Source: a virus
Strand: one strand, 5' to 3'
Virus genome (UHGV): UHGV-1375844
DNA: 64,000 nucleotides
Under the pieces are notes generated by a model. The model had not been told where the DNA came from and searched no databases. It worked only from the letters and a program-made list of their open reading frames with translations. This document shows, one piece after another, positions 2,552 to 60,571 of the stretch (its first letter is position 1; each line of letters opens with the position of its first letter). Made by a program: the position numbers and the translations under genes.

Positions 2552-3346
2552 TTACCAGGTCGCCCAGCCGGTCATCTTGCCTTGTGCGGCCTCGAATCTA
2601 AACGGCTCAAGTAGTTCATTGGCGTGGTGGACGGCATATGATTTGGCCTCCTGCTTAACCATTGGGAGATCATTAGCCAGACGGACAACCTGCCCCGCAA
2701 AGCTCGCGAGGACGCCATCGCAAGCCTGTCCTGCATCGACAATGATGCGCACCAGGTCAAGGTCGCTATGACACATATCGCAGATGGTGCCGTATTCAAC
2801 CTCACGAACACGCTCCACAGCCTTCTTGGTGTCAGCATTTACAACTAAATCCAGCAGACCAGGCGGGGTCTTCAGCTCAGAAGAACGTTCCATTACTTCA
2901 GGCAATTCGATGATGCTTAAGAATGCGGCGCAGGCTGTGTCCTCTTCCGTTTCCGCTCTGTTTTTGATCGCTCTTAGGGTGATGTCTACGACACTAAGAA
3001 GATCTTCACCATGCAGGCATTGGGCGTAATTTGTGAAGACGATACGGCCGTCGTACCAGGCACCGGTACGTATCTCCATCGCTCCATTCTCAGCCTTCTT
3101 CATGAAAGCCACCAACGCGGCACGCTTCGGTTTAATGCCCGGTAATTCAGGGGACTCTCCAAAGCGAACCCACACCCGCATGTAAGAAGAACCTTCAGCA
3201 AGCGATACGGTCTTTAGCACCTGTGCAATATGCTTCAACGCCGCATCGATGGCTTCACCAACAATTTTCTGGCGTTCGTCAGCGTCGATTTCCACGCCCG
3301 ATTTATCAATCATCTCTGTCACGGATTTTTGAATGTCTTCTTTCAT
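2552..3346 (-). CDS. hypothetical protein (264 aa)
   Basis: Long ORF in replication block; no recognisable motif. Confidence 0.55.
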   Translation of the reverse strand: MKEDIQKSVTEMIDKSGVEIDADERQKIVGEAIDAALKHIAQVLKTVSLAEGSSYMRVWVRFGESPELPGIKPKRAALVAFMKKAENGAMEIRTGAWYDGRIVFTNYAQCLHGEDLLSVVDITLRAIKNRAETEEDTACAAFLSIIELPEVMERSSELKTPPGLLDLVVNADTKKAVERVREVEYGTICDMCHSDLDLVRIIVDAGQACDGVLASFAGQVVRLANDLPMVKQEAKSYAVHHANELLEPFRFEAAQGKMTGWATW

Positions 3347-3387
3347 CGGTATTCCTCACTCAACAATGCGCTTATTCTTACAGAAAT

Positions 3388-3407
3388 ATAAGTAAGCATC
3401 TACTTAT
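3388..3407. promoter_or_regulatory. motif A palindrome copy
   Basis: ATAAGTAAGCATCTACTTAT in the primase / 2552..3346 intergenic gap. Confidence 0.45.
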
Positions 3408-3424
3408 CATAAAGGCTATAAAAC

Positions 3425-4540
3425 CTACACGAGAGCTTTGATGCCAAGCACCTTGCTTTGCAGTTCAAGCTGTCTTGTGTAGGGTTTCGCACGATAATAG
3501 GCTTTGAGGATTTGCTCTGGCGTCGCGTCGCCCGGGTCAAGTCCTTCCTCTCCTAAGCAGGCGACTTTAACGTTGATGCCCAGACTGGCGAGTCGTCTGG
3601 CCGCCGACATCGTGTTGCGGATCGCTTGCTTCTCGCTATCCCACATCATAATGACGTTTCGCAGACCACGGGCCTTCAGTGTCAGGAACGCGCCCAGCTG
3701 GTCTTCTGCATCTTCCGTTGTATTTCCGGATAAGTGCATCCCGAACGTACCTATTGGCTCGACGTACTCTCGCAACGTCTCTTCTTCGAATATGGCGCGC
3801 TTAACCCCCATGACATCAAACGCACCTTCACACACGACGACCGTCTGCTTTCCGACCGCGTTATGGCCGTTGTAGAGAAACTTTCCGGAGGCTGGCAGCT
3901 GCATGGGGAAAAGGTAGCGACGTTCTGCTGTGCCGGTGACATCACGCCCCTGGAATGTCTTCATGACACCATCCAGATCGTAAACCGGTATGAGAATGCG
4001 CATGTCAAACACCTGCCCCTTCACCTGGTCGGTGTAGGGATCGACATACGCGTGCTTGCCTTCCACGCAATAACGAAGGTCAAAGTATCTGGCCATTTCC
4101 GGCGTTATGAGACGCTTAACGAGATAATCAGGAAGTCGCCCATCGATAGGCAGTTCATAGTGGCGCGGAAGAGCAACTGGCCCCTCAAGCTCAACACCAC
4201 TGGATAACACCACTTCTTCTTTCTTCGGCGCCCACCCCTGCGAGATTAAGGCATTCTGAACGTATGCCTCGAAATCCCGGCGTGATTTGCCACTGTAGTG
4301 CTTGAGAAAAACCAGCTTGTTAAACTGAATCTCTTCGGGGTGATCGCCCGCAAAACATTTACCTACGCCATGAGAGAGGTTGAAATACACTTTCCAGTTT
4401 GAGCTGCCGCATACCGGACACTCTTTGATGTTAATTTCTCGTCCGCGCGTACTCACTCCGCCGCGACGATAGATAACGCCTTCAGTATCGAGCCATTGTT
4501 CAAAATCCAGCTCGGTCAGTAACTCTTTCAGGTCGCTCAC
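3425..4540 (-). CDS. DNA primase (zinc-ribbon + TOPRIM)
   Basis: CPVCGSSNW...GKCFAGDH zinc ribbon; TOPRIM-like VVVCEGAFDVMG and MMWDSEKQ. Confidence 0.75.
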   Translation of the reverse strand: MSDLKELLTELDFEQWLDTEGVIYRRGGVSTRGREINIKECPVCGSSNWKVYFNLSHGVGKCFAGDHPEEIQFNKLVFLKHYSGKSRRDFEAYVQNALISQGWAPKKEEVVLSSGVELEGPVALPRHYELPIDGRLPDYLVKRLITPEMARYFDLRYCVEGKHAYVDPYTDQVKGQVFDMRILIPVYDLDGVMKTFQGRDVTGTAERRYLFPMQLPASGKFLYNGHNAVGKQTVVVCEGAFDVMGVKRAIFEEETLREYVEPIGTFGMHLSGNTTEDAEDQLGAFLTLKARGLRNVIMMWDSEKQAIRNTMSAARRLASLGINVKVACLGEEGLDPGDATPEQILKAYYRAKPYTRQLELQSKVLGIKALV

Positions 4541-4690
4541 GTTTAAACCTACTTTTTTCAGGCAATATTTTGATTACTCTCGGTTTTTAGTTACCATAGA
4601 GGCTCATGTGTTTTTCTTTTGTGGTTTTGGCAAAAGAAAACTTAAATCTCTGATGGATTAAGGCGTGGAGAGACTTTCCACGCCTGTTTT

Positions 4691-6031
4691 TTATAAAACA
4701 TCCATGATTCTTTCGATAAACCGCATTTGTTCCAGGTTCTGTTTGACACGGATGCTCACCCCGCCCTTCTGGTTACGTGAACCAGCAAAGTAGAGTCTTG
4801 CCTCGCCTTTTGCTTCTTCCTCTTCCGTTTTGTTGATAGTGATGACCAGGTCAGCGATACGCACCTTCTCGATGTTGTCTGCTGCGTGCATCATGGTCGC
4901 CACTTCCGATGCCCCACCTTCCCTGTTTGTTTGGGATGCGGTGATGCCGGCAACGTTGTGCTTGTCGTACAGCGCACGAAGATCGGTGTAAATGCTTCGT
5001 ATGTTTGCCCGGTCATCACGGAGGTCGTAGCTCGGCCGCATCAGATCGGCATAATCGACAACCACCATATCCGGGATCATGCCATTTGCCTTCATGCCAC
5101 CCAGCATACGGTCAAGATCTGCAGGCGATACGCTTCCGGATGGCCGCTCAACAATCCACAAGCTCCCAACCCCTTTCGTCGCCCCCAGCTCCGCCAGTTT
5201 GCGGTGGACGTCGTCGCGGCGCTCCACCAGCTTGGACATTTCCGTCTCGGACAGACGGGCGTCGAAACGGTCTGACAGAATAGAGGTGTGTACTTCCAGC
5301 GACAGATACAGGACGTTGTAACCGGCAAGCGTGGCGTTGACAGAGAACTCACCCATCGCCGTCGATTTACCAGACTTCGCGAAGCCCATGAACAGCACCA
5401 TTTCACGCTTGGCCCAGCCTTTCTGGTAAAGCAGTTTATCGAGCAGGGGGAGACCCGTTGTGATGCTGTTTGGCACGTAATCGTCAGATGCCTCGTACTC
5501 ACGCGTCTTGTAACGCTCTGCTGACTCAGAGAAGTAATCGTAGATGCCGGTCGCTTCGTTAGAGCCGATTTGCTGGACTTTGGCCATGATTGCCATCGCG
5601 CCCTGGAAATCGCCCTTCTCCTTCATCTCAGCCGCTTTGATTAGCGCGTCGTCGAACGCCACGCTTTTGGCGAACGTCGCGACCTGGTCGACCATGTACG
5701 CCGTGTCTGACAGCTTCTCAGCGAGAATCCGCTTAAACGCCTCAACAACATCGGGGAACAGCTCTTCGCGGATCGTCTTATCGCGTTTGGCGCGTTTGAG
5801 CATGTCGAGGATGGCCGACGACGAAGGTGCGCTTTTGTACATTCTGTAATAGCCAGACACCATATTCACCAGCAGGGCATTGGCCGCGTTGGAGAACTGG
5901 TTAGGTGCAACCAAATCGCCTGCACGAGTCAGAAACTCATGGTCGCGACAGAAATAGGCTGCGAGCCGGTTCTGGAAGTCGTCATCGAACTCTTCTGACA
6001 ACCCTCGTCCTGTGTGGCAAAGTTCGGTCAT
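4691..6031 (-). CDS. DnaB-like replicative DNA helicase
   Basis: Walker A GFAKSGKST, Walker B-like VVVDYADLM, RecA-type C-terminal domain, 446 aa. Confidence 0.75.
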   Translation of the reverse strand: MTELCHTGRGLSEEFDDDFQNRLAAYFCRDHEFLTRAGDLVAPNQFSNAANALLVNMVSGYYRMYKSAPSSSAILDMLKRAKRDKTIREELFPDVVEAFKRILAEKLSDTAYMVDQVATFAKSVAFDDALIKAAEMKEKGDFQGAMAIMAKVQQIGSNEATGIYDYFSESAERYKTREYEASDDYVPNSITTGLPLLDKLLYQKGWAKREMVLFMGFAKSGKSTAMGEFSVNATLAGYNVLYLSLEVHTSILSDRFDARLSETEMSKLVERRDDVHRKLAELGATKGVGSLWIVERPSGSVSPADLDRMLGGMKANGMIPDMVVVDYADLMRPSYDLRDDRANIRSIYTDLRALYDKHNVAGITASQTNREGGASEVATMMHAADNIEKVRIADLVITINKTEEEEAKGEARLYFAGSRNQKGGVSIRVKQNLEQMRFIERIMDVL

Positions 6032-6050
6032 GTGCTTTCCTTTAGTTCTT

Positions 6051-6066
6051 AAACAAATTGTTTTCT
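6051..6066. promoter_or_regulatory. motif B core copy
   Basis: AAACAAATTGTTTTCT about 20 nt upstream of helicase ATG. Confidence 0.45.
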
Positions 6067-6091
6067 AATGCTAAAAAAGCCAGATAGGGGA

Positions 6092-6817
6092 TCAACAGAA
6101 ACGCCGCGCTTCTTCCAGCTCTTCCGGAAAGTGGGCGTAGATAACTCGCTCAGGCACAACTTCCATGAGCCAGATGGCAGAAAAAATTATGCGTATGCGC
6201 TTATCCCGGGTGATGCCACGTAAACGCTCCAGAACCCACTCAAAATAGCTTTCCTGAATCGGGTCGTGCTGCATGTCTCCCATATGCTTAAAACTCACCA
6301 GAGAGTCATCCAGACGGGTTACAGCGCGTTTAGCTAACTTCTCTTCGAATATCTCGATTAGCTCTGGCTGCCAGAGATGTTGTGGGCGAGGTAATTTGTC
6401 CCACAACCGGCGTGCAGCTGCGGAGAGAACGGTGGAGATGAAGTAGTCATAAGAGCAGCAATAACGATCTGCGAACTGCCTGGCTTTCCAGAGAGAAGTC
6501 TTATTGGCTGTGGATAGCTCCTGATATGGCAAACGCTTCAGGCCAGTTGTAAACGGTGCTGTCTCGAAGTGTTCACGTCCATGCGACAGCATGATGTAGG
6601 AGTACTGCCGCTTGTATGCTTCGGTGAACAGACATGTCGCCATTAGCGGGTGCATATCGCGGTAGTCGAACCACTTGGAGTCATACAACTCGGCCTCATC
6701 CTTACAGCGCGAAAGACCGATGTTTTCGGCCACCCACTTGTCCATGACAGCGGTGTCCCACTCCTTCATGAAGGCGTACTGGTCGTTGTCGATAGTGTTG
6801 AAGAAAATCTGGCTCAT
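6092..6817 (-). CDS. hypothetical protein (241 aa)
   Basis: ORF adjacent to helicase; no recognisable motif. Confidence 0.55.
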   Translation of the reverse strand: MSQIFFNTIDNDQYAFMKEWDTAVMDKWVAENIGLSRCKDEAELYDSKWFDYRDMHPLMATCLFTEAYKRQYSYIMLSHGREHFETAPFTTGLKRLPYQELSTANKTSLWKARQFADRYCCSYDYFISTVLSAAARRLWDKLPRPQHLWQPELIEIFEEKLAKRAVTRLDDSLVSFKHMGDMQHDPIQESYFEWVLERLRGITRDKRIRIIFSAIWLMEVVPERVIYAHFPEELEEARRFC

Positions 6818-6831
6818 GTGATCCGCTATGG

Positions 6832-6850
6832 TAGGTAGTTACTTACTTAT
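6832..6850. promoter_or_regulatory. motif A palindrome copy
   Basis: TAGGTAGTTACTTACTTAT immediately upstream of ATG at 6817. Confidence 0.45.
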
Positions 6851-6936
6851 CAAAGTGAGCGAATCATAACGACTGGAGACAGCTTTTGGAAGTGGCAACT
6901 GAAGGGAATGTGTCTGGGAAGCTCGTTGTGAAAAGA

Positions 6937-6990
6937 CCTGCTTCCGTATAAATAATAATAAGTAACTTAGTATTTATATACAGAAGCAGG
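6937..6990. repeat. long inverted repeat H1 (18-20 bp arms)
   Basis: CCTGCTTCCGTATAAATA ... TATTTATATACAGAAGCAGG; loop carries a motif-A-like palindrome; near-identical copy at 40995..41049. Confidence 0.7.
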
Positions 6991-7006
6991 TTATAAAATC
7001 CTTTAT

Positions 7007-7417
7007 CTATTTTTCGATAACTCTTTGTTCAACTTCTTGCATCTGCTTTTCAGTGAGACTAGAAATGTGTTGATTCAGCAACAGATTGCGGTAGAAACTT
7101 TTTTGAGCCTCCGATAAATCCTGTCGCTTATCAATGTTTCTCAAAGCATTGCCGTAACTCTCGCTGATCGCATCACCATTGAATGCCTCAATAATGGTTT
7201 TCACATTCATAGCCAAGACGCCAAAGATAAAACAACCAGTGTTGTATACCCAGTCTACAACAAACCCTTTGGCGTACAAGAAAGGGGTTAAAATGTGAAG
7301 AATAACCCAAAGCAAAGCGCCAATTATTATTCCAAAAGCAGTTCTAAGCGGATAGCCCAAAAACAGAATATCTATTGCCCGATTTAAATTCCGACTAAAG
7401 AAATCATGATCTGGCAT
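7007..7417 (-). CDS. membrane protein (136 aa), AT-rich gene
   Basis: Hydrophobic helices (ILFLGYPLRTAFGIIIGALLWVILHILTPFLY); visibly AT-rich coding sequence. Confidence 0.5.
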   Translation of the reverse strand: MPDHDFFSRNLNRAIDILFLGYPLRTAFGIIIGALLWVILHILTPFLYAKGFVVDWVYNTGCFIFGVLAMNVKTIIEAFNGDAISESYGNALRNIDKRQDLSEAQKSFYRNLLLNQHISSLTEKQMQEVEQRVIEK

Positions 7418-8048
7418 CTAAAACCCCCTTTCCCAATTCTTCCCCTGGAATTTCTTCCGAGGCAGGGGTATTAAATATTTTACGCCTTCTGCCGCTTCCA
7501 CCATCATCGATCTTGTCGATATTATTTTCGATGAACTTTAAAAGCTGTATAGCCTCTGTACTATTGTTGCCGTAAAACCCTTTGGAAATACGATATGTCA
7601 GAACGCGCTCTTTCAGCTCAAGTAAAACAAAGACAACAATCCCGATAATAGTTACAATGGGGCTAAAGCCCCAAAAGTAACCCATTGAAGCACCAAGAAA
7701 AATCATCAGCACCGATAAAAACTTAACCTTAAGGAAGGTTTTTTTCTCATATAAAAGATAAAGCTCGGAAATAGTTTTCCTTTTCAAAAACTCTTGCTCT
7801 TTCTTTAAATTGTCCTCATGTTTTGCTTTTATCTCTTGTAATTTTATTCTGTACTCTTCTGATTTTATATAACTCAATGTATTACGATACAAGAAACTAC
7901 ATACCATACCTATCATTGAGCCAATAACAGAAATGACACCTTGGTTTGAAATTCCCAACAACCCCATAACCTTTCCAAAGATCACGGCGGCTATAATGGC
8001 TAACATTAGACCTACGAACCATCCGAAATGTCTATTCAGGAATTTCAT
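7404..8048 (-). CDS. membrane protein (214 aa), AT-rich gene
   Basis: N-terminal TM helices, lysine-rich coiled middle, second TM block; AT-rich; overlaps next gene by 14 nt. Confidence 0.5.
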   Translation of the reverse strand: MKFLNRHFGWFVGLMLAIIAAVIFGKVMGLLGISNQGVISVIGSMIGMVCSFLYRNTLSYIKSEEYRIKLQEIKAKHEDNLKKEQEFLKRKTISELYLLYEKKTFLKVKFLSVLMIFLGASMGYFWGFSPIVTIIGIVVFVLLELKERVLTYRISKGFYGNNSTEAIQLLKFIENNIDKIDDGGSGRRRKIFNTPASEEIPGEELGKGVLDARS

Positions 8049-8052
8049 TATA

Positions 8053-8412
8053 TTAGCCTTTCTTCATCAGCTCGCGCTTGATCTCGTCTGTGCGCATCGT
8101 GACGTCAGCAGCGGTGATCGCCTCGTTCAGTTTCACAATGTCCTCGATTTCCTGCGGCGACTTCTCTGCCAGATGGTAAATGGCTGCACGAATCACGTCA
8201 GAACGGGTGAACTTCTCAAAGCGAGGGATGAATTTCATCATCTCCAGCAGATCGAAGTATTCGTCCTCCAGCGACATGGTACGGCTCTTTATTTTCTCTT
8301 TCCCACGAGTCGGGCGGCCCTGTGGTCTGACTGGCTGGCGCAACGGCGTGCTGTTTTTGGCCGGAGCATCCGGTTCTTTGCGCTTGGCAAGGTCTCCCAT
8401 CTTCATGGACAT
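8053..8412 (-). CDS. ParG-like ribbon-helix-helix partition protein (putative centromere-binding)
   Basis: Basic disordered N-terminus then RHH-like segment (KSRTMSL / EDEYFDLLEMM / RSDVIRAAIYHLAE); immediately downstream of ParA-like gene. Confidence 0.5.
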   Translation of the reverse strand: MSMKMGDLAKRKEPDAPAKNSTPLRQPVRPQGRPTRGKEKIKSRTMSLEDEYFDLLEMMKFIPRFEKFTRSDVIRAAIYHLAEKSPQEIEDIVKLNEAITAADVTMRTDEIKRELMKKG

Positions 8413-9077
8413 TACTCTTCCTCCAGACTCAAGATATAATCAACAAACTGTTCAAACTCGGCTTCTGCCTTCTTGTCGCGTTCGGCGCCAGTCATTTCAA
8501 AGATAGAGCGACCAGCCTCTTCTGCATCATCGTAAACGTTACGGTTGTACAAATTGACCGGTGCAGCTTCGATACCAAACGTCTCAACGATTTCTTTGGC
8601 GGCCAGAATACGCGACACCTGGGAAGGTAGTGACGGGCACTGGTTGATAACGGCACGTATTTTCACCTTCTCGTTCACATTGCGTACATTGTCGATAATC
8701 GGGTCGATGTCGCGCAGCGATTTCAGGTCACGACGTTTAGGGCGCAGCGGTATGACGATAACATCAGCCATCAGCATAGCTTGTCGCTGGATTTCGGAGT
8801 CGAAGCCCCCTGCGTCTACAACCACGTAATCGAAGCGCCCCTGAAGCGATTTGAGATGCTTAACGACGTCTTCCTGAACGTAAGCGAAAGGAATGAGATC
8901 GAGATCTTCATTCTGTCGACGGTCTTCGCACCAGCTGGTAGTGGTGCGCTGGATGTCGATGTCGGTAACTTGGATTTTCTTTTTCTTTTTGACTTTCAGG
9001 CAAACCGCTATTTGCTGGGCAACGGTCGATTTACCCGGGCCACCCTTCGTGCCGCCAACCACAATGATCCTAGTCAT
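8412..9077 (-). CDS. ParA/ParF-family partition ATPase
   Basis: Deviant Walker A GGTKGGPGKST, 221 aa. Confidence 0.8.
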   Translation of the reverse strand: MTRIIVVGGTKGGPGKSTVAQQIAVCLKVKKKKKIQVTDIDIQRTTTSWCEDRRQNEDLDLIPFAYVQEDVVKHLKSLQGRFDYVVVDAGGFDSEIQRQAMLMADVIVIPLRPKRRDLKSLRDIDPIIDNVRNVNEKVKIRAVINQCPSLPSQVSRILAAKEIVETFGIEAAPVNLYNRNVYDDAEEAGRSIFEMTGAERDKKAEAEFEQFVDYILSLEEE

Positions 9078-49767: not shown

Positions 49768-49780
49768 CGAGATAATCCTT

Positions 49781-49816
49781 TAAACAATTTGTTTTCTTGA
49801 TGGTTTAATTATCGCT
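49781..49816 (-). promoter_or_regulatory. motif B promoter/operator copy
   Basis: Minus strand reads GCGATAATTAAACCATCAAGAAAACAAATTGTTTAAAGGA then ATG. Confidence 0.5.
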
Positions 49817-49990
49817 ACGCGTATCAGGCGTCCAAGCGCTCTATTCCGGCATCTGTTTGCCTGAAGGGAGTCAGAGGGTCGTTCGGTAGCCTGGCGGTAA
49901 GAGGTGGGTGTTTTGCCTGATGTGATGAGGTTGGTATATCTGGCGGGCAAGCGGTGCTATCTTGGCCGCAGGTAACTCAGGAGACTCAAG

Positions 49991-52979: not shown

Positions 52980-53470
52980 CTTTTTGCGCTTCTTGAGGCT
53001 GTTCTTCTATGCGTTTTCTTCTGGGTTGTTTTCGTCTCTTTGGGTGTTCTTCTTCTCTGGGTATTGAGTAATGGCAGGTGTGCTTTCCTCTTCGTTTACT
53101 TGCTGAGAAGGAAGTGTGGGGAATGGCAGTAGGGCGCTTTAGTTGTTCTCTGCATATCAAGTAATAGCGTTCCCTGCTTTTCAGGACTTTGCGCTCTCTT
53201 CAGGGGTAATGGTGGGTAAGTAAGATTGCAACGGCTCCTGTTCTGGTCTGGGTTTGCCCGGGGTTGCATTCTGAGCGCTGTTCTCTGTGTTTTGGGTAAT
53301 GGCATGTAGAGGATTGCGTGCGCGAGCTGCGTCTCGGTTGCCTGGTGGCATTAGGTGGGTGGTCGGTAGCCTGGGGTCAAGAGGTGGGTCTATTCCATAG
53401 CCTGGTGGTAAGAGGTGGGTAGTTTCCGGGGGTTGTGGGCAATGGCGCCTCTGGGTTTCCCGCGGGTGGG
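52980..53470. repeat. degenerate tandem direct repeats in ORF-free region
   Basis: Recurring TTCTCTGGGT...GGTAATGGC units (period roughly 75-80 bp) and 3 copies of TAGCCTGG.GGT.AAGAGGTGGGT; a fourth copy of the latter lies at about 49871. Confidence 0.55.
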
Positions 53471-57151: not shown

Positions 57152-57433
57152 TTACTCTCCCTTACTACTTGCTCTGTTCGCCTGAACTTCCTTAGCCAGA
57201 TCGTAAGTAATTTTGCATGGCACAATCATCGCCCAGCCTTTTTCGTGGCTGTTAATCACCTGCTGGATATGACCATCTGTAATAGGGATATCCGGCAGTG
57301 CTTTGAACGTGGCGATCTGCTCCTGTATCTCCAAAAAGAACTGCGCCAGCTCCATCTGTTCGCCGCGGGTTAAGGGGTGTTCCAGTGGACATCGGACAAA
57401 ATCCGCGACACGTTTGATGCTGAGATCACTCAT
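57152..57433 (-). CDS. hypothetical protein (93 aa)
   Basis: ORF, coupled to the upstream gene. Confidence 0.45.
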   Translation of the reverse strand: MSDLSIKRVADFVRCPLEHPLTRGEQMELAQFFLEIQEQIATFKALPDIPITDGHIQQVINSHEKGWAMIVPCKITYDLAKEVQANRASSKGE

Positions 57434-58119
57434 GCCGAGGCCTCTTTAGCCTTTGCTTCCAAATCGCGAACATATTGCACAAGCGAGCCACCTGGTGGGA
57501 TCTGGCACTCTTCTACCAGCTGGAAGTAGATATCGGCTGCGGCTCGGGTGTTTGAACCTTTTGTCAGCTTTTCTTCGCGCAGTGCGGCGCATTCGTTAAT
57601 AAGACGATCACACTCGCCATTGCGCTGATCAATCACGGCTTCCAGTTCTGCAATTCGCTCGCCTGGCGTTTTGCCTTCCTTACGTTGAGTCGTCACGGTA
57701 AAGTCACCCAGCTCCGGCACGCTGTAAGTTAGCTCCAGGTAGTTACTGGCGCCGTGACGAACAAACTCGCCGGCGAACATGGTGCCGAACATTGCAGAGG
57801 CCAGCTCGCCATTAAAAAGCGACTCCAGATCTAACGGAGTACCGGCAGCCAGCGCCTCTTTAGCTGTTTCCATTGCGTCCATGAACCGATCGAACTCATT
57901 AGCGCGTTTTTCCAGGTTTCTCCATTGCTGACTCCAACGTTTTGCAACGTGTTCCACGAACACCTGGGCAGCGGAATCAAACTCGCCGGTGAACGTCACT
58001 TTGTCTTTGTCGATGGTAATCTTGCCGACCTGTTTGTTCGAGTTGCCCTGAAGCACCAAGTTGAATGGCGTGTCAGCTACACTCGCAGAGGCTATAAATG
58101 GCGCTACTGTATTTTTCAT
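57430..58119 (-). CDS. hypothetical protein (229 aa)
   Basis: ORF with motif A upstream. Confidence 0.5.
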   Translation of the reverse strand: MKNTVAPFIASASVADTPFNLVLQGNSNKQVGKITIDKDKVTFTGEFDSAAQVFVEHVAKRWSQQWRNLEKRANEFDRFMDAMETAKEALAAGTPLDLESLFNGELASAMFGTMFAGEFVRHGASNYLELTYSVPELGDFTVTTQRKEGKTPGERIAELEAVIDQRNGECDRLINECAALREEKLTKGSNTRAAADIYFQLVEECQIPPGGSLVQYVRDLEAKAKEASA

Positions 58120-58157: not shown

Positions 58158-58177
58158 ATAAGTAAGTATTTACCTAT
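58158..58177. promoter_or_regulatory. motif A palindrome copy
   Basis: ATAAGTAAGTATTTACCTAT abutting the methyltransferase stop codon. Confidence 0.45.
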
Positions 58178-59880
58178 CATTTAATGCGTTTGAAAACGTA
58201 CACGCTTACAGTGATCCCCGTGTCCTCAAACTCATCAGTGAATGACTTGCCTTTGGCGTAGACGTAATTGTCCAGCGTCATCCAGTTTAGAATTGATGAG
58301 TCTCCCGGTAATACTGCTACCAGGCGCCCACCGACTTTCAGATGCCCCAGCCCGGCCAGCGTGTGCTCTTTGTGGCGGCCGAGAGAGTAGGGTGGGTTCA
58401 TGACAATCTTGTCGAATTGATAACCTGCATTATCGGCAGACCATTTCATGAAGTCACAGCAGACCGTGTTTACGTAGCCTTTGCCAACAAGGATGTCAGC
58501 GAAGAGCGGGGCAATCTCAATACAGGTGACGTCTTCAGGATTGGTCTCGATATAAGCAAGCAGATCTCCGCGACCAGCTTCCGGCTCCAGCAATGTTTCA
58601 CCGGATTTCAAATCAACGGCTTTGGCTACGTACTCAGCGATTACGCGTGGGGTAGGGTAAAATTGATGTGATTTTGCATCTGGGATCAGACCCGTGGCCA
58701 CAATCGTATTGAGCGTATGACCGATCTCATACGGGAACTGCCAGTGCCCCTTCTCCTGCACGCCGCCAATGAAGCTCAGTGTGCGCACCAGCTCTTCCAC
58801 CTGCGACTTCTGAAGGCTCGAATCTGAGAAGTACCAGACACCTTTGTCTTTGCTGAATCGCCCGTCACGCAACGTGGTGCGAACAGGTTCAGAGATGGTC
58901 TTTTGGATGAGGCCAAACTCTTTAGGCGCTCGGGCTTTTGGCGCTGTTCTGCAAGGGGCAGGGATAGCAGCAGGCATACTGTACGCCAGCACTTCATTTA
59001 GTTTCCAGGCCACATCCGGATGGATCTCAAAATGTACGTTGCCGTTCTTGAACATCTTCACACGCATCAGGTTTCCGTCGACATTCATCCAGTCACCGGT
59101 CTGGCAGTCGTTCGCCCGGTACGCAGCTGATAGCATCTCCGTTGTGCGGTTGATGGTGATGAACTCTTTGTGCGCAAAAAAATGAAGCATAACGCGCAGG
59201 TCGTCGATGTAGTCTTCCTTCCGATAGTTCACGCTGACGCTGTCCCTCCAGAACTCGGAAATGCAGCTGGCGATGATCAGACGCTCGCTGAAGCCGTTCG
59301 TCTTATTGGTCTTGTGCGCAGGACTCAGCGCCTTAAACAAGCCATACACGCGCTCGGAAAGATATTTATGCCTGTCATTCAGCAAATTAAGCATCGTTGG
59401 GATGACCGTCTCTGCCTTGAACTCCGGCACACCAACGAACTCCTTAACCTTCATCTGGTAACCGGTTCTGTCTGTCTTGATAGTTTCCTGTTTGCCTTCT
59501 ATGAACTGTTCGCGCCACTCGTCACGGCGTGAAGCTGGCATGATCAGCAGAACGTTGGTCATATCCGTAACCTTCTTCCAGTACTCGGCCCAGATATTCT
59601 GTTTCACCCATTCCAGGTCGACTTTATCCAGCCAGGCTCTGTTAAAACGCGTGCGCTCATCATCCGGCCGGTGGTTGAGTCGCAGCAGACGGTTGATCAT
59701 GTTGTGGCGTTCGTCGCCATAAACGAAGTCGTGAACCTGATACATGAAGGCGATCTCTTTCTCGCACTCGGCCACAATTTCGTGGATGACGTTCATTTCC
59801 TGGCGATAGTCGATTTCAGTATTGGGCGTTACGGAGTCAATGATAGAAAGGGCTGTACTCATAATTGCACCATTAAACAA
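58177..59880 (-). CDS. N6-adenine DNA methyltransferase with ~390-aa N-terminal domain of unknown function
   Basis: C-terminal FYPTP, motif I-like EPEAGRGDL, catalytic NPPY (IVMNPPYS). Confidence 0.75.
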   Translation of the reverse strand: MFNGAIMSTALSIIDSVTPNTEIDYRQEMNVIHEIVAECEKEIAFMYQVHDFVYGDERHNMINRLLRLNHRPDDERTRFNRAWLDKVDLEWVKQNIWAEYWKKVTDMTNVLLIMPASRRDEWREQFIEGKQETIKTDRTGYQMKVKEFVGVPEFKAETVIPTMLNLLNDRHKYLSERVYGLFKALSPAHKTNKTNGFSERLIIASCISEFWRDSVSVNYRKEDYIDDLRVMLHFFAHKEFITINRTTEMLSAAYRANDCQTGDWMNVDGNLMRVKMFKNGNVHFEIHPDVAWKLNEVLAYSMPAAIPAPCRTAPKARAPKEFGLIQKTISEPVRTTLRDGRFSKDKGVWYFSDSSLQKSQVEELVRTLSFIGGVQEKGHWQFPYEIGHTLNTIVATGLIPDAKSHQFYPTPRVIAEYVAKAVDLKSGETLLEPEAGRGDLLAYIETNPEDVTCIEIAPLFADILVGKGYVNTVCCDFMKWSADNAGYQFDKIVMNPPYSLGRHKEHTLAGLGHLKVGGRLVAVLPGDSSILNWMTLDNYVYAKGKSFTDEFEDTGITVSVYVFKRIK

Positions 59881-59908
59881 ATTGTTTTCTTATTGGTGTT
59901 ATTTTCGC
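59873..59908 (-). promoter_or_regulatory. motif B promoter/operator copy
   Basis: TTAAACAAATTGTTTTCTTATTGGTGTTATTTTCGC immediately upstream of methyltransferase ATG. Confidence 0.5.
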
Positions 59909-59961
59909 AAAGCTGAAAAGGCGTAAAAGCTGTATTTGCAGGCGTTGCAGCATAGTGAGGG

Positions 59962-59985
59962 CAAAAAAGGGGGCTTTCGCCCCCT
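59962..59985 (-). terminator. intrinsic terminator
   Basis: GGGGGC-loop-GCCCCC followed on the minus strand by TTTTTTG. Confidence 0.6.
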
Positions 59986-60001: not shown

Positions 60002-60571
60002 TTAGTGGCTTGCACTTAAATCTTTCTGAGGCTGCTTATTCAGGTCATGGCGGTGGGTAAGCTCGCGCATCATGTCCTCAAGGCGACTTTTGGTGGAGTC
60101 TAACTGGTCGGCCATAGAGCCGAGCATTTGACGAACGGCCATTGGATCATCGCTCTGCAGATCAGGCATCTTGAAACCTGTCTGGGTGGTCATCAACTTA
60201 AAGGCAGAAATAAGTATGGCCATCGAGGATTTCAGGCCGGCAATTTCGCGGTCTTTACTGGCGACAGTTTCGTCAGCTTTGATGGCGCTCGGTGCGCATT
60301 TCTGCTCGCTGACCATATTCAGTGTGGATTGCATTTTATCAGCGCGATCTTTCTCTGCGAGATAGTGAACACCCAGGTGGTGCGCCAGGCCGATAATTTC
60401 CATTGGGTCATCAAAAATTGAAGCGAATTTAACGACAGTAATCAGTCTTTCAGGCGCTGAAGACTGTTCTGTGCCGCGCACTATACCAAGCATTTTTACC
60501 AGATCCGCGACTTCCATCTCTTCAAATTTTGCATTCATCTCTGCGGCTTTAGCTTTGCAATTCTGACACAT
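60002..60571 (-). CDS. hypothetical protein (189 aa)
   Basis: ORF with motif B upstream. Confidence 0.5.
   Translation of the reverse strand: MCQNCKAKAAEMNAKFEEMEVADLVKMLGIVRGTEQSSAPERLITVVKFASIFDDPMEIIGLAHHLGVHYLAEKDRADKMQSTLNMVSEQKCAPSAIKADETVASKDREIAGLKSSMAILISAFKLMTTQTGFKMPDLQSDDPMAVRQMLGSMADQLDSTKSRLEDMMRELTHRHDLNKQPQKDLSASH

Follow-up and report, generated by a model that had tools for sequence, protein, structure and literature searches.

N6-adenine methylases are a hub domain of the polyvalent proteins of phages and conjugative elements (Iyer et al. 2017, PMC5512222), and those linked to helicases, with DarB of phage P1 as the archetype, have been placed in the EcoKI/TaqI-like DNA adenine family and assigned a role in protecting injected DNA (PMC5512222). 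Orphan methyltransferases also form a prominent class in the leading regions of plasmids (PMC11541004), and two plasmid-encoded orphans, M.EcoGIX and M.BceJIII, are single-strand-specific enzymes of the beta class with a DPPY motif and the relaxed specificity SAY (Fomenkov et al. 2020, PMC7736820). Here, we describe a gene in virus genome UHGV-1375844, of which a stretch of 64,000 nucleotides (hereafter, the window) was analysed; its 561-residue product joins a DUF4942 module to a minimal methyltransferase core. On balance, we favour the prediction that this protein is an orphan, accessory anti-restriction DNA N6-adenine methyltransferase of an SSU5-type phage-plasmid, in which DUF4942 serves as a constant platform for binding DNA or a partner, and the specificity of which may be relaxed.

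The start of the gene needs to be settled before its domains can be discussed. As the first-pass annotation had it, an open reading frame (ORF) lies at 58177..59880 on the minus strand, with 567 residues counted from a TTG, and it is the largest ORF of the 44-64 kb block, the genes of which are mostly on the minus strand. The TTG at 59880 is almost certainly the wrong start and the ATG at 59862 the true one, which gives a coding sequence (CDS) of 58177..59862 on the minus strand (561 residues plus stop). We assign this CDS because the TTG falls within an upstream operator palindrome (59875-59887), a GGTG Shine-Dalgarno element lies 5 nucleotides (nt) 5' of the ATG, and 561 residues is the length of most relatives as well as that recorded, plus stop, in the RefSeq entry of the identical gene on Salmonella plasmid pSA20094620.2; the full-length match to PHROG 6263, given below, belongs to the same evidence. 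The 567-residue versions found in databases (P0010, P0013, P0017, and others) begin at the TTG within the palindrome (window 59863-59880), and are probably a start-codon mis-annotation that has been propagated among Salmonella records. Residue numbers here follow the 561-residue protein; the Pfam, PHROG, and PADLOC-type profile runs were made on the 567-residue ORF and give values 6 higher.

The protein has three parts, and the N-terminal domain of about 390 residues that was first proposed is not one domain but a DUF4942 module (residues 1-305) followed by a linker and a small domain (306-392). AlphaFold2 models of the full-length protein (alignment of 29 sequences) and of residues 1-392 (18 sequences) were confident, with predicted local distance difference test scores of 84.4 and 83.5 and predicted template modelling scores of 0.72 and 0.73, respectively. 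They contain helices (residues 20-120), a beta-hairpin (124-142), an alpha/beta core (150-295), a linker (296-324), a small alpha/beta domain (325-390), and a Rossmann methyltransferase domain (395-561). The first module boundary can be fixed at about residue 305 because the stand-alone DUF4942 homologues (approximately 268-278 residues) stop at the equivalent position. On the minus strand of the window, the DUF4942 module, with its variable helical N-terminus (20-120), beta-hairpin, and conserved alpha/beta core, occupies 58948..59862, as delimited by Pfam PF13708, the model, and the stand-alone homologues. The linker, which is rich in Pro, Lys, and Arg (residues 301-324, isoelectric point 10.3), and the small alpha/beta domain (325-392) occupy 58687..58947 according to the alignment and the model. 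The minimal adenine-N6 methyltransferase core (393-561), which has no target-recognition domain, occupies 58180..58686, as judged by alignment, motifs, and profile comparison, and column entropy places a hypervariable loop (521-545) within its Rossmann fold at 58228..58302.

The FYPTP, EPEAGRGDL, and NPPY motifs on which the methyltransferase call was originally based are all present on the minus strand. They correspond to motif X at 58648-58662 (residues 407-411 of the 567-residue ORF, 401-405 of the 561-residue protein), motif I at 58561-58587 (432-440 and 426-434), and motif IV at 58387-58398 (495-498 and 489-492). Across 29 sequences, down to 32% identity, F401, Y402, P403, P405, P427, A429, G430, G432, E449, D470, F471, N489, P490, and P491 are invariant. 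The domain has the class I Rossmann methyltransferase fold, and its motifs run in the gamma order, X (FxTP), I (ExxGxG), and IV (NPPY/F), as in the EcoKI/TaqI-like N6-adenine amino-methyltransferases; the match to Pfam N6_Mtase was below threshold. A canonical C-terminal target-recognition domain is absent from the model and the alignment, because the roughly 70 residues that follow NPPY form the last Rossmann strands and just complete the fold, and there is no HsdS-like specificity gene among the adjacent genes.

The same core is found in very different proteins. Residues 399-561 align end to end with residues 1246-1415 of p69, a 3,190-residue 'virion structural protein' of Aeromonas phage phiARM81mr (hhalign 99.5%, E 3e-23) that additionally bears ddrB-ParB and LPD38 domains. 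The core is also present within a 3,421-residue protein of Pseudoalteromonas phage vB_Pun_Y3, and several giant PHROG families (1,259-3,925 residues) match it. Among phage genomes, it occurs in 227 records, versus 41 for the DUF4942 module. By these comparisons, the core is a mobile module that is reused across elements.

The enzyme is an orphan. No cognate restriction endonuclease was found, since the flanking genes, which encode Rha/Ant-like, TerB-like, HD-domain, RNase H, and unknown-function phage proteins, gave no match to a nuclease family, and the gene does not belong to a restriction-modification system of type I, II, or III. It is also accessory. In a related phage-plasmid, Klebsiella pneumoniae p82_3 (NZ_CP101549.1, locus 3501-7180), the gene has been reduced to a 71-residue stub by an inserted type I restriction-modification system (HsdR, HsdS). 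Because it has been cut down in this way, the gene is dispensable, and because the type I system fills the rest of the p82_3 locus, the site is a hot-spot for cargo exchange. PHROG 25525 (71 residues) is probably this stub remnant.

Where, then, could specificity reside in a protein with so small a core? The first-pass annotation had suggested that the N-terminal part might supply target recognition. That part matches no characterised target-recognition domain by sequence or by fold, and DUF4942 is among the most conserved segments and also exists alone, without a methyltransferase, both of which argue against its being a variable specificity element. Per-segment identity and column entropy identify the DUF4942 core and the catalytic motifs as the conserved parts, and small-domain residues 321-360 and loop 521-545 as hypervariable (approximately 2.5 bits of column entropy). 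Relatives whose catalytic cores are 42-64% identical retain only 8-28% identity in the loop. Throughout the fused family, the GG at 366-367 does not vary. One relative, P0046, is 95-97% identical over residues 20-300, 48-54% over 325-520, and 16% over 521-545, which indicates a clear recombinational swap, at the linker, of the small-domain and methyltransferase cassette between Salmonella/E. coli-type and Klebsiella-type alleles; the start of the PHROG 9133 match at residue ~330 agrees with such a swap. Within a family of methyltransferases, it is usually the classical target-recognition domain that varies. Because the DUF4942 core is conserved instead, it is more likely to be a constant platform, with any sequence preference set by the small domain and loop 521-545; the loop is thus a candidate substrate-contact or specificity element.

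The DUF4942 module itself deserves a closer look. It had been stated that the N-terminal two-thirds holds no recognisable motif; this is so except for residues 140-295, which belong to Pfam DUF4942 (PF13708; 76 bits against a gathering cut-off of 25 bits, E 4e-21). All 18 N-terminal homologues examined match this family, and a permissive scan of the same 18 sequences revealed no second recurrent Pfam family. A fold search of the Protein Data Bank gave no structural neighbour for the module. DUF4942 proteins that stand alone abound in Xylella, Burkholderia, Ralstonia, and genera related to them (hhalign 98.8% to the N-terminal module). In Xylella pXF51, one lies near DUF3560, ssb, and parAB, and in Ralstonia/Burkholderia islands (three loci, positions ~2800-8810) it follows DUF932, a YqaJ-like exonuclease, a Gp3-like protein, and a protein of unknown function. 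The latter block adjoins the VgrG/PAAR genes of a type VI secretion system. None of the Xylella, Ralstonia, or Burkholderia loci examined has a methyltransferase gene next to the stand-alone DUF4942. A 194-residue neighbour of the Xylella protein was considered as the missing methyltransferase half and ruled out, since it showed no similarity and had no Pfam hit. Across fused and stand-alone proteins, 21 residues are invariant: W95, M108, W116, Q119, P146, T156, L160, R164, V172, F176, L179, S180, T185, N186, F191, I196, D221, G274, H277, N289, and A293. Among those with polar side chains, Ser, Thr, Asn, Gln, Arg, and His predominate and Asp occurs once, and our impression, which is no more than that, is of a binding site rather than a metal-dependent nuclease.

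These observations give some substance to a different explanation, which we hold to be possible though distinctly less probable, namely, that the protein is bifunctional in the manner of the polyvalent proteins. DUF4942 would then be an independent establishment effector (for example, anti-defence, recombination-associated, or binding DNA ends or single-stranded DNA) that is merely fused to a broad-specificity methyltransferase. The abundant stand-alone proteins, of about 268 residues, end exactly at the fusion boundary and lie in mobile-element islands with no adjacent methyltransferase; the invariant residues kept in both contexts include Q119, R164, S180, T185, N186, D221, H277, and N289; and the methyltransferase core is autonomous in other elements. 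However, almost all of the 150 best hits keep the fused architecture of about 510-580 residues, and the 41 phage records with the DUF4942 module are mostly annotated as methylases, both of which suggest functional coupling. In addition, neither the fold search nor the Pfam scan revealed a catalytic signature or a known fold in DUF4942.

A related proposal, which we regard as speculative and rather doubtful, is that DUF4942 is a structurally new, autonomous establishment module that directs the minimal methyltransferase either to a host factor or to a particular state of DNA, for example DNA that is entering the cell, replicating, single-stranded, or nicked. If this were true, the DUF4942-targeted core would methylate adenines broadly and with little specificity, so that many restriction systems would be overcome together, and the stand-alone DUF4942 proteins would perform the same recognition step for another partner.

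A substrate other than DNA is improbable. DUF4942 might, on that account, recognise host or phage RNA (N6-methyladenosine or N2-methylguanosine in rRNA or tRNA) or a protein glutamine. Several features of the core and its setting point away from this and suggest DNA, not RNA, as the substrate. The FYPTP helix (motif X) followed by LEPxAGxG is a hallmark of the TaqI/EcoKI-like DNA enzymes. In comparisons with profile hidden Markov models (HMMs), the stronger matches were with families of DNA methyltransferases from phages and defence systems (PADLOC type II MTase, 8e-11; mad2, 1e-13; and PHROG DNA methyltransferases). The polyvalent virion protein contains a methylase module homologous to the core, and N6A methylases of this kind have been described (PMC5512222). 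Family genes also adjoin those of other DNA methyltransferases. In a lambdoid prophage, the family gene has an N6_N4 methyltransferase on one side and a C5 methyltransferase on the other, and the replication genes lie upstream. In an IncHI2 plasmid (locus 3561-7845) and a related 116-kb Logan contig (locus 5655-9638), Dam is followed by a protein of ~360-390 residues and then by the DUF4942-methyltransferase. The middle protein is ParB- and helix-turn-helix-like in the IncHI2 plasmid, where the trio lies near repHI2, and the three may form a functional trio.

Recurrent motifs, designated A and B in the first-pass annotation, do sit at both boundaries of the gene, and we infer that they are the palindrome AAACAAnTTGTTT and a 20-bp palindrome, respectively. 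The former occurs at 16 sites in the window, versus 0.29 expected by chance. The operator-like copy at 59875..59887 (AAACAATTTGTTT on the gene strand, probably motif A) lies 13 nt 5' of the ATG. Eight copies belong to a conserved unit composed of TGCGATAAT, 13 nt, and AAACAAnTTGTTT, which is found 10-25 nt before minus-strand start codons between window positions 49774 and 60621 (near 49782, 50509, 51463, 52056, 54642, 56689, 59875, and 60592). Isolated palindromes are present at 6051, 9113, 40922/40947, 53495, 54693, 55071, 56741, and 62143. At some of the promoters, another palindrome is found 51-52 bp further upstream (54642/54693 and 56689/56741), and this pairing suggests cooperative repressor binding.

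Upstream of the methyltransferase gene, alignment of the eight upstream regions reveals an extended -10-like promoter element, TGCGAAAAT, at 59901..59909 on the minus strand (family consensus TGCGATAAT); a simple sigma-70 scan of the same region gave no canonical promoter, and the extended -10 reading comes from the repeated-unit alignment alone. A hairpin scan placed an intrinsic terminator-like hairpin at 59968..59985 on the minus strand, after the upstream gene at 60002-60571, which would make the methyltransferase gene a separate transcription unit. The repeated unit can be read as an operator placed downstream of an extended -10 promoter; on this reading, the gene would be separately controlled and probably repressor-regulated, with expression early or upon derepression. 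As a set, the palindromes have the look of a network of operators for the main repressor of the element, and their layout is comparable to that of the dispersed C1 operators in phage P1.

The second palindrome, probably motif B, lies at 58158..58177, where it touches the first base of the stop codon. Here, it reads ATAgGTAAaT.ACTTACTTAT (consensus ATAAGTAAGT.ACTTACTTAT) and is followed by TGTGTAAGAAT. Its 15-mer core has 24 matches versus 0.16 expected, and approximately 13 good 20-bp sites are spread over the whole window, the structural-gene region included (3388, 6831, 12124, 13228, 19204, 25671, 32192, 37451, 38964, 44495, 51048, 58158, and 63008). Several copies are followed by a -10-like element (TGTGTAAGAAT, TAAGAAT, or TATAGT). 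The copy at 58158-58177 is probably a promoter element for the downstream gene at 57430-58119, not part of the methyltransferase gene. Motif B may be a binding site for an activator of late genes, and can be likened to the Lpa-type late promoters of P1. The window also contains a 33-nt repeat (TTCGGTAGCCTGGCGGTAAGAGGTGGGTGTTTT-like) in four copies, at 49882-49914 and 53333-53425, three of them in tandem with 29-31-nt spacing; such an arrangement resembles iterons and could point to a site of replication or partition.

It had also been speculated that motif A is the target of the enzyme, and nothing links either motif to a target. That the protein is an epigenetic regulator that methylates motif A (AAACAAnTTGTTT) and so modulates repressor binding at early promoters is very improbable, since, although the palindrome is adenine-rich and one copy lies 13 nt 5' of the gene's own start codon, it behaves as a promoter-operator unit in front of eight or more transcription units (so that its proximity is not special), relatives at 31-38% identity sit in IncHI2 plasmids and lambdoid prophages with different regulatory circuits, the gene has been lost in a related phage-plasmid, and there is no positive evidence for it.

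If we return to the anti-restriction methyltransferase that we favour, the following course of events can be proposed. The gene would be transcribed from one of the eight repeated promoter-plus-operator units, and the enzyme would modify adenines in the DNA of the element itself, with host DNA methylated incidentally. The DUF4942 platform would bring the minimal core to its substrate, and the small domain together with loop 521-545 would set any sequence preference, which may be relaxed. Methylation would then keep host restriction enzymes from cutting the DNA of the element.

How unusual is such a gene? The first-pass annotation had described a fusion, and this is no special one but a fixed, catalogued architecture that appears in Pfam (DUF4942), PHROG 6263, and the RefSeq name, in 1,455 clusters and in thousands of plasmids. 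The window is an SSU5-type phage-plasmid because of the identity of the gene and its product to SSU5-type relatives and to a Salmonella plasmid. The protein is 100% identical to WP_058662272.1 ('DUF4942 domain-containing protein'), which is encoded by a 106.6-kb IncFIB non-mobilizable Salmonella plasmid, and the gene has 85-88% nucleotide identity to those of Salmonella phage SSU5, Klebsiella phage-plasmids, and E. coli phage Cyrano. The homologues carry various names, including 'DNA methyltransferase' (SSU5_095), 'DUF4942 domain-containing protein' (CYRAN_90), and 'YdiA' in S. Typhi (pHCM2). The order of genes is kept as RNase H, TerB-like, Rha/Ant-like, a 189-residue unknown-function protein, the methyltransferase, Ead/Ea22-like, Eaa-like, and an HD-domain protein, and is the same in SSU5 and Cyrano.

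The ORF matches PHROG 6263 ('DNA methyltransferase') at E 1e-293, with residues 7-567 aligned to positions 1-548 of the 548 in the profile. A profile search with residues 1-392 against 1.84 billion representative proteins returned 1,455 clusters at 50% identity, 408 of them at E < 1e-30, and nearly all of the 150 best clusters consist of proteins of 510-580 residues in which the module is N-terminal. With tblastn, at least 5,000 plasmid records were matched, at least 2,132 of which cover 80% or more of the query; IncHI2 conjugative plasmids are among the matches at ~31% identity, and the family members at 31-38% identity sit in IncHI2 plasmids and lambdoid prophages. The older Pfam name of DUF4942 is, we presume, Methyltransf_27. 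Literature searches that covered DUF4942, the methyltransferases of SSU5 and pHCM2, and phage-plasmid methylomes yielded nothing on function, and no experimental report for any family member.

As a sequence finding, therefore, the gene is ordinary. RefSeq already contains an identical protein, Pfam and PHROGs list the family, the members of which are extremely common, and orphan methyltransferases that counter restriction are well known. SSU5-type phage-plasmids and IncHI2 and IncF plasmids are major vehicles of antibiotic-resistance genes in the Enterobacterales, and their host range is limited in part by restriction. The family is present in thousands of such elements. Broad protection, if true, would help to account for their movement from one species to another, and would give DUF4942 a function.

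Compared with known systems, the protein differs from the gamma-class type II enzymes (M.TaqI, M.BseCI, and CamA), which have a C-terminal target-recognition domain, and from type I HsdM, which uses HsdS; it has recourse to neither. It does not belong with M.EcoGIX and M.BceJIII, a separate family that lacks DUF4942, given that those are beta-class enzymes with DPPY and this protein has the gamma-type order with NPPY, yet they illustrate that relaxed specificity is possible. A likeness is seen in the leading region of IncF and IncI plasmids, where a 187-residue 'class I SAM-dependent methyltransferase' (WP_001298559.1) is encoded between a DUF3560 gene and ssb, in the anti-defence and establishment region. 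It shares 31% identity with the core (E 5e-15), has the NPPF/NPPY motif, and likewise lacks a target-recognition domain, but it consists of the core alone, without DUF4942. The possibility that the IncF DUF3560 protein and this methyltransferase are a split version of our protein was ruled out, as hhalign gave DUF3560 a probability of 0.1% against the N-terminal profile.

The polyvalent proteins resemble it in possessing a homologous methylase module, which is ParB-linked in phiARM81mr p69 and corresponds to the core of about 165 residues without a target-recognition domain, and in their presumed role of shielding incoming DNA from restriction. They differ in size (1,000-4,000 residues versus 561) and in that the N-terminal partner here is DUF4942; Pfam scans detected no helicase, ParB, LPD, or protease domain in the 561-residue protein, which is thus not a DarB-like polyvalent protein and shows no sign of being packaged into virions. 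Its true place is in the DUF4942-methyltransferase family, along with SSU5_095, Cyrano CYRAN_90, pHCM2 'YdiA', and IncHI2 WP_042634269.1, the members of which have the same three-part architecture, and to which it is related by identities that range from approximately 89% (protein) and 87% (nucleotide) for the SSU5 gene to 31% for the IncHI2 copies.

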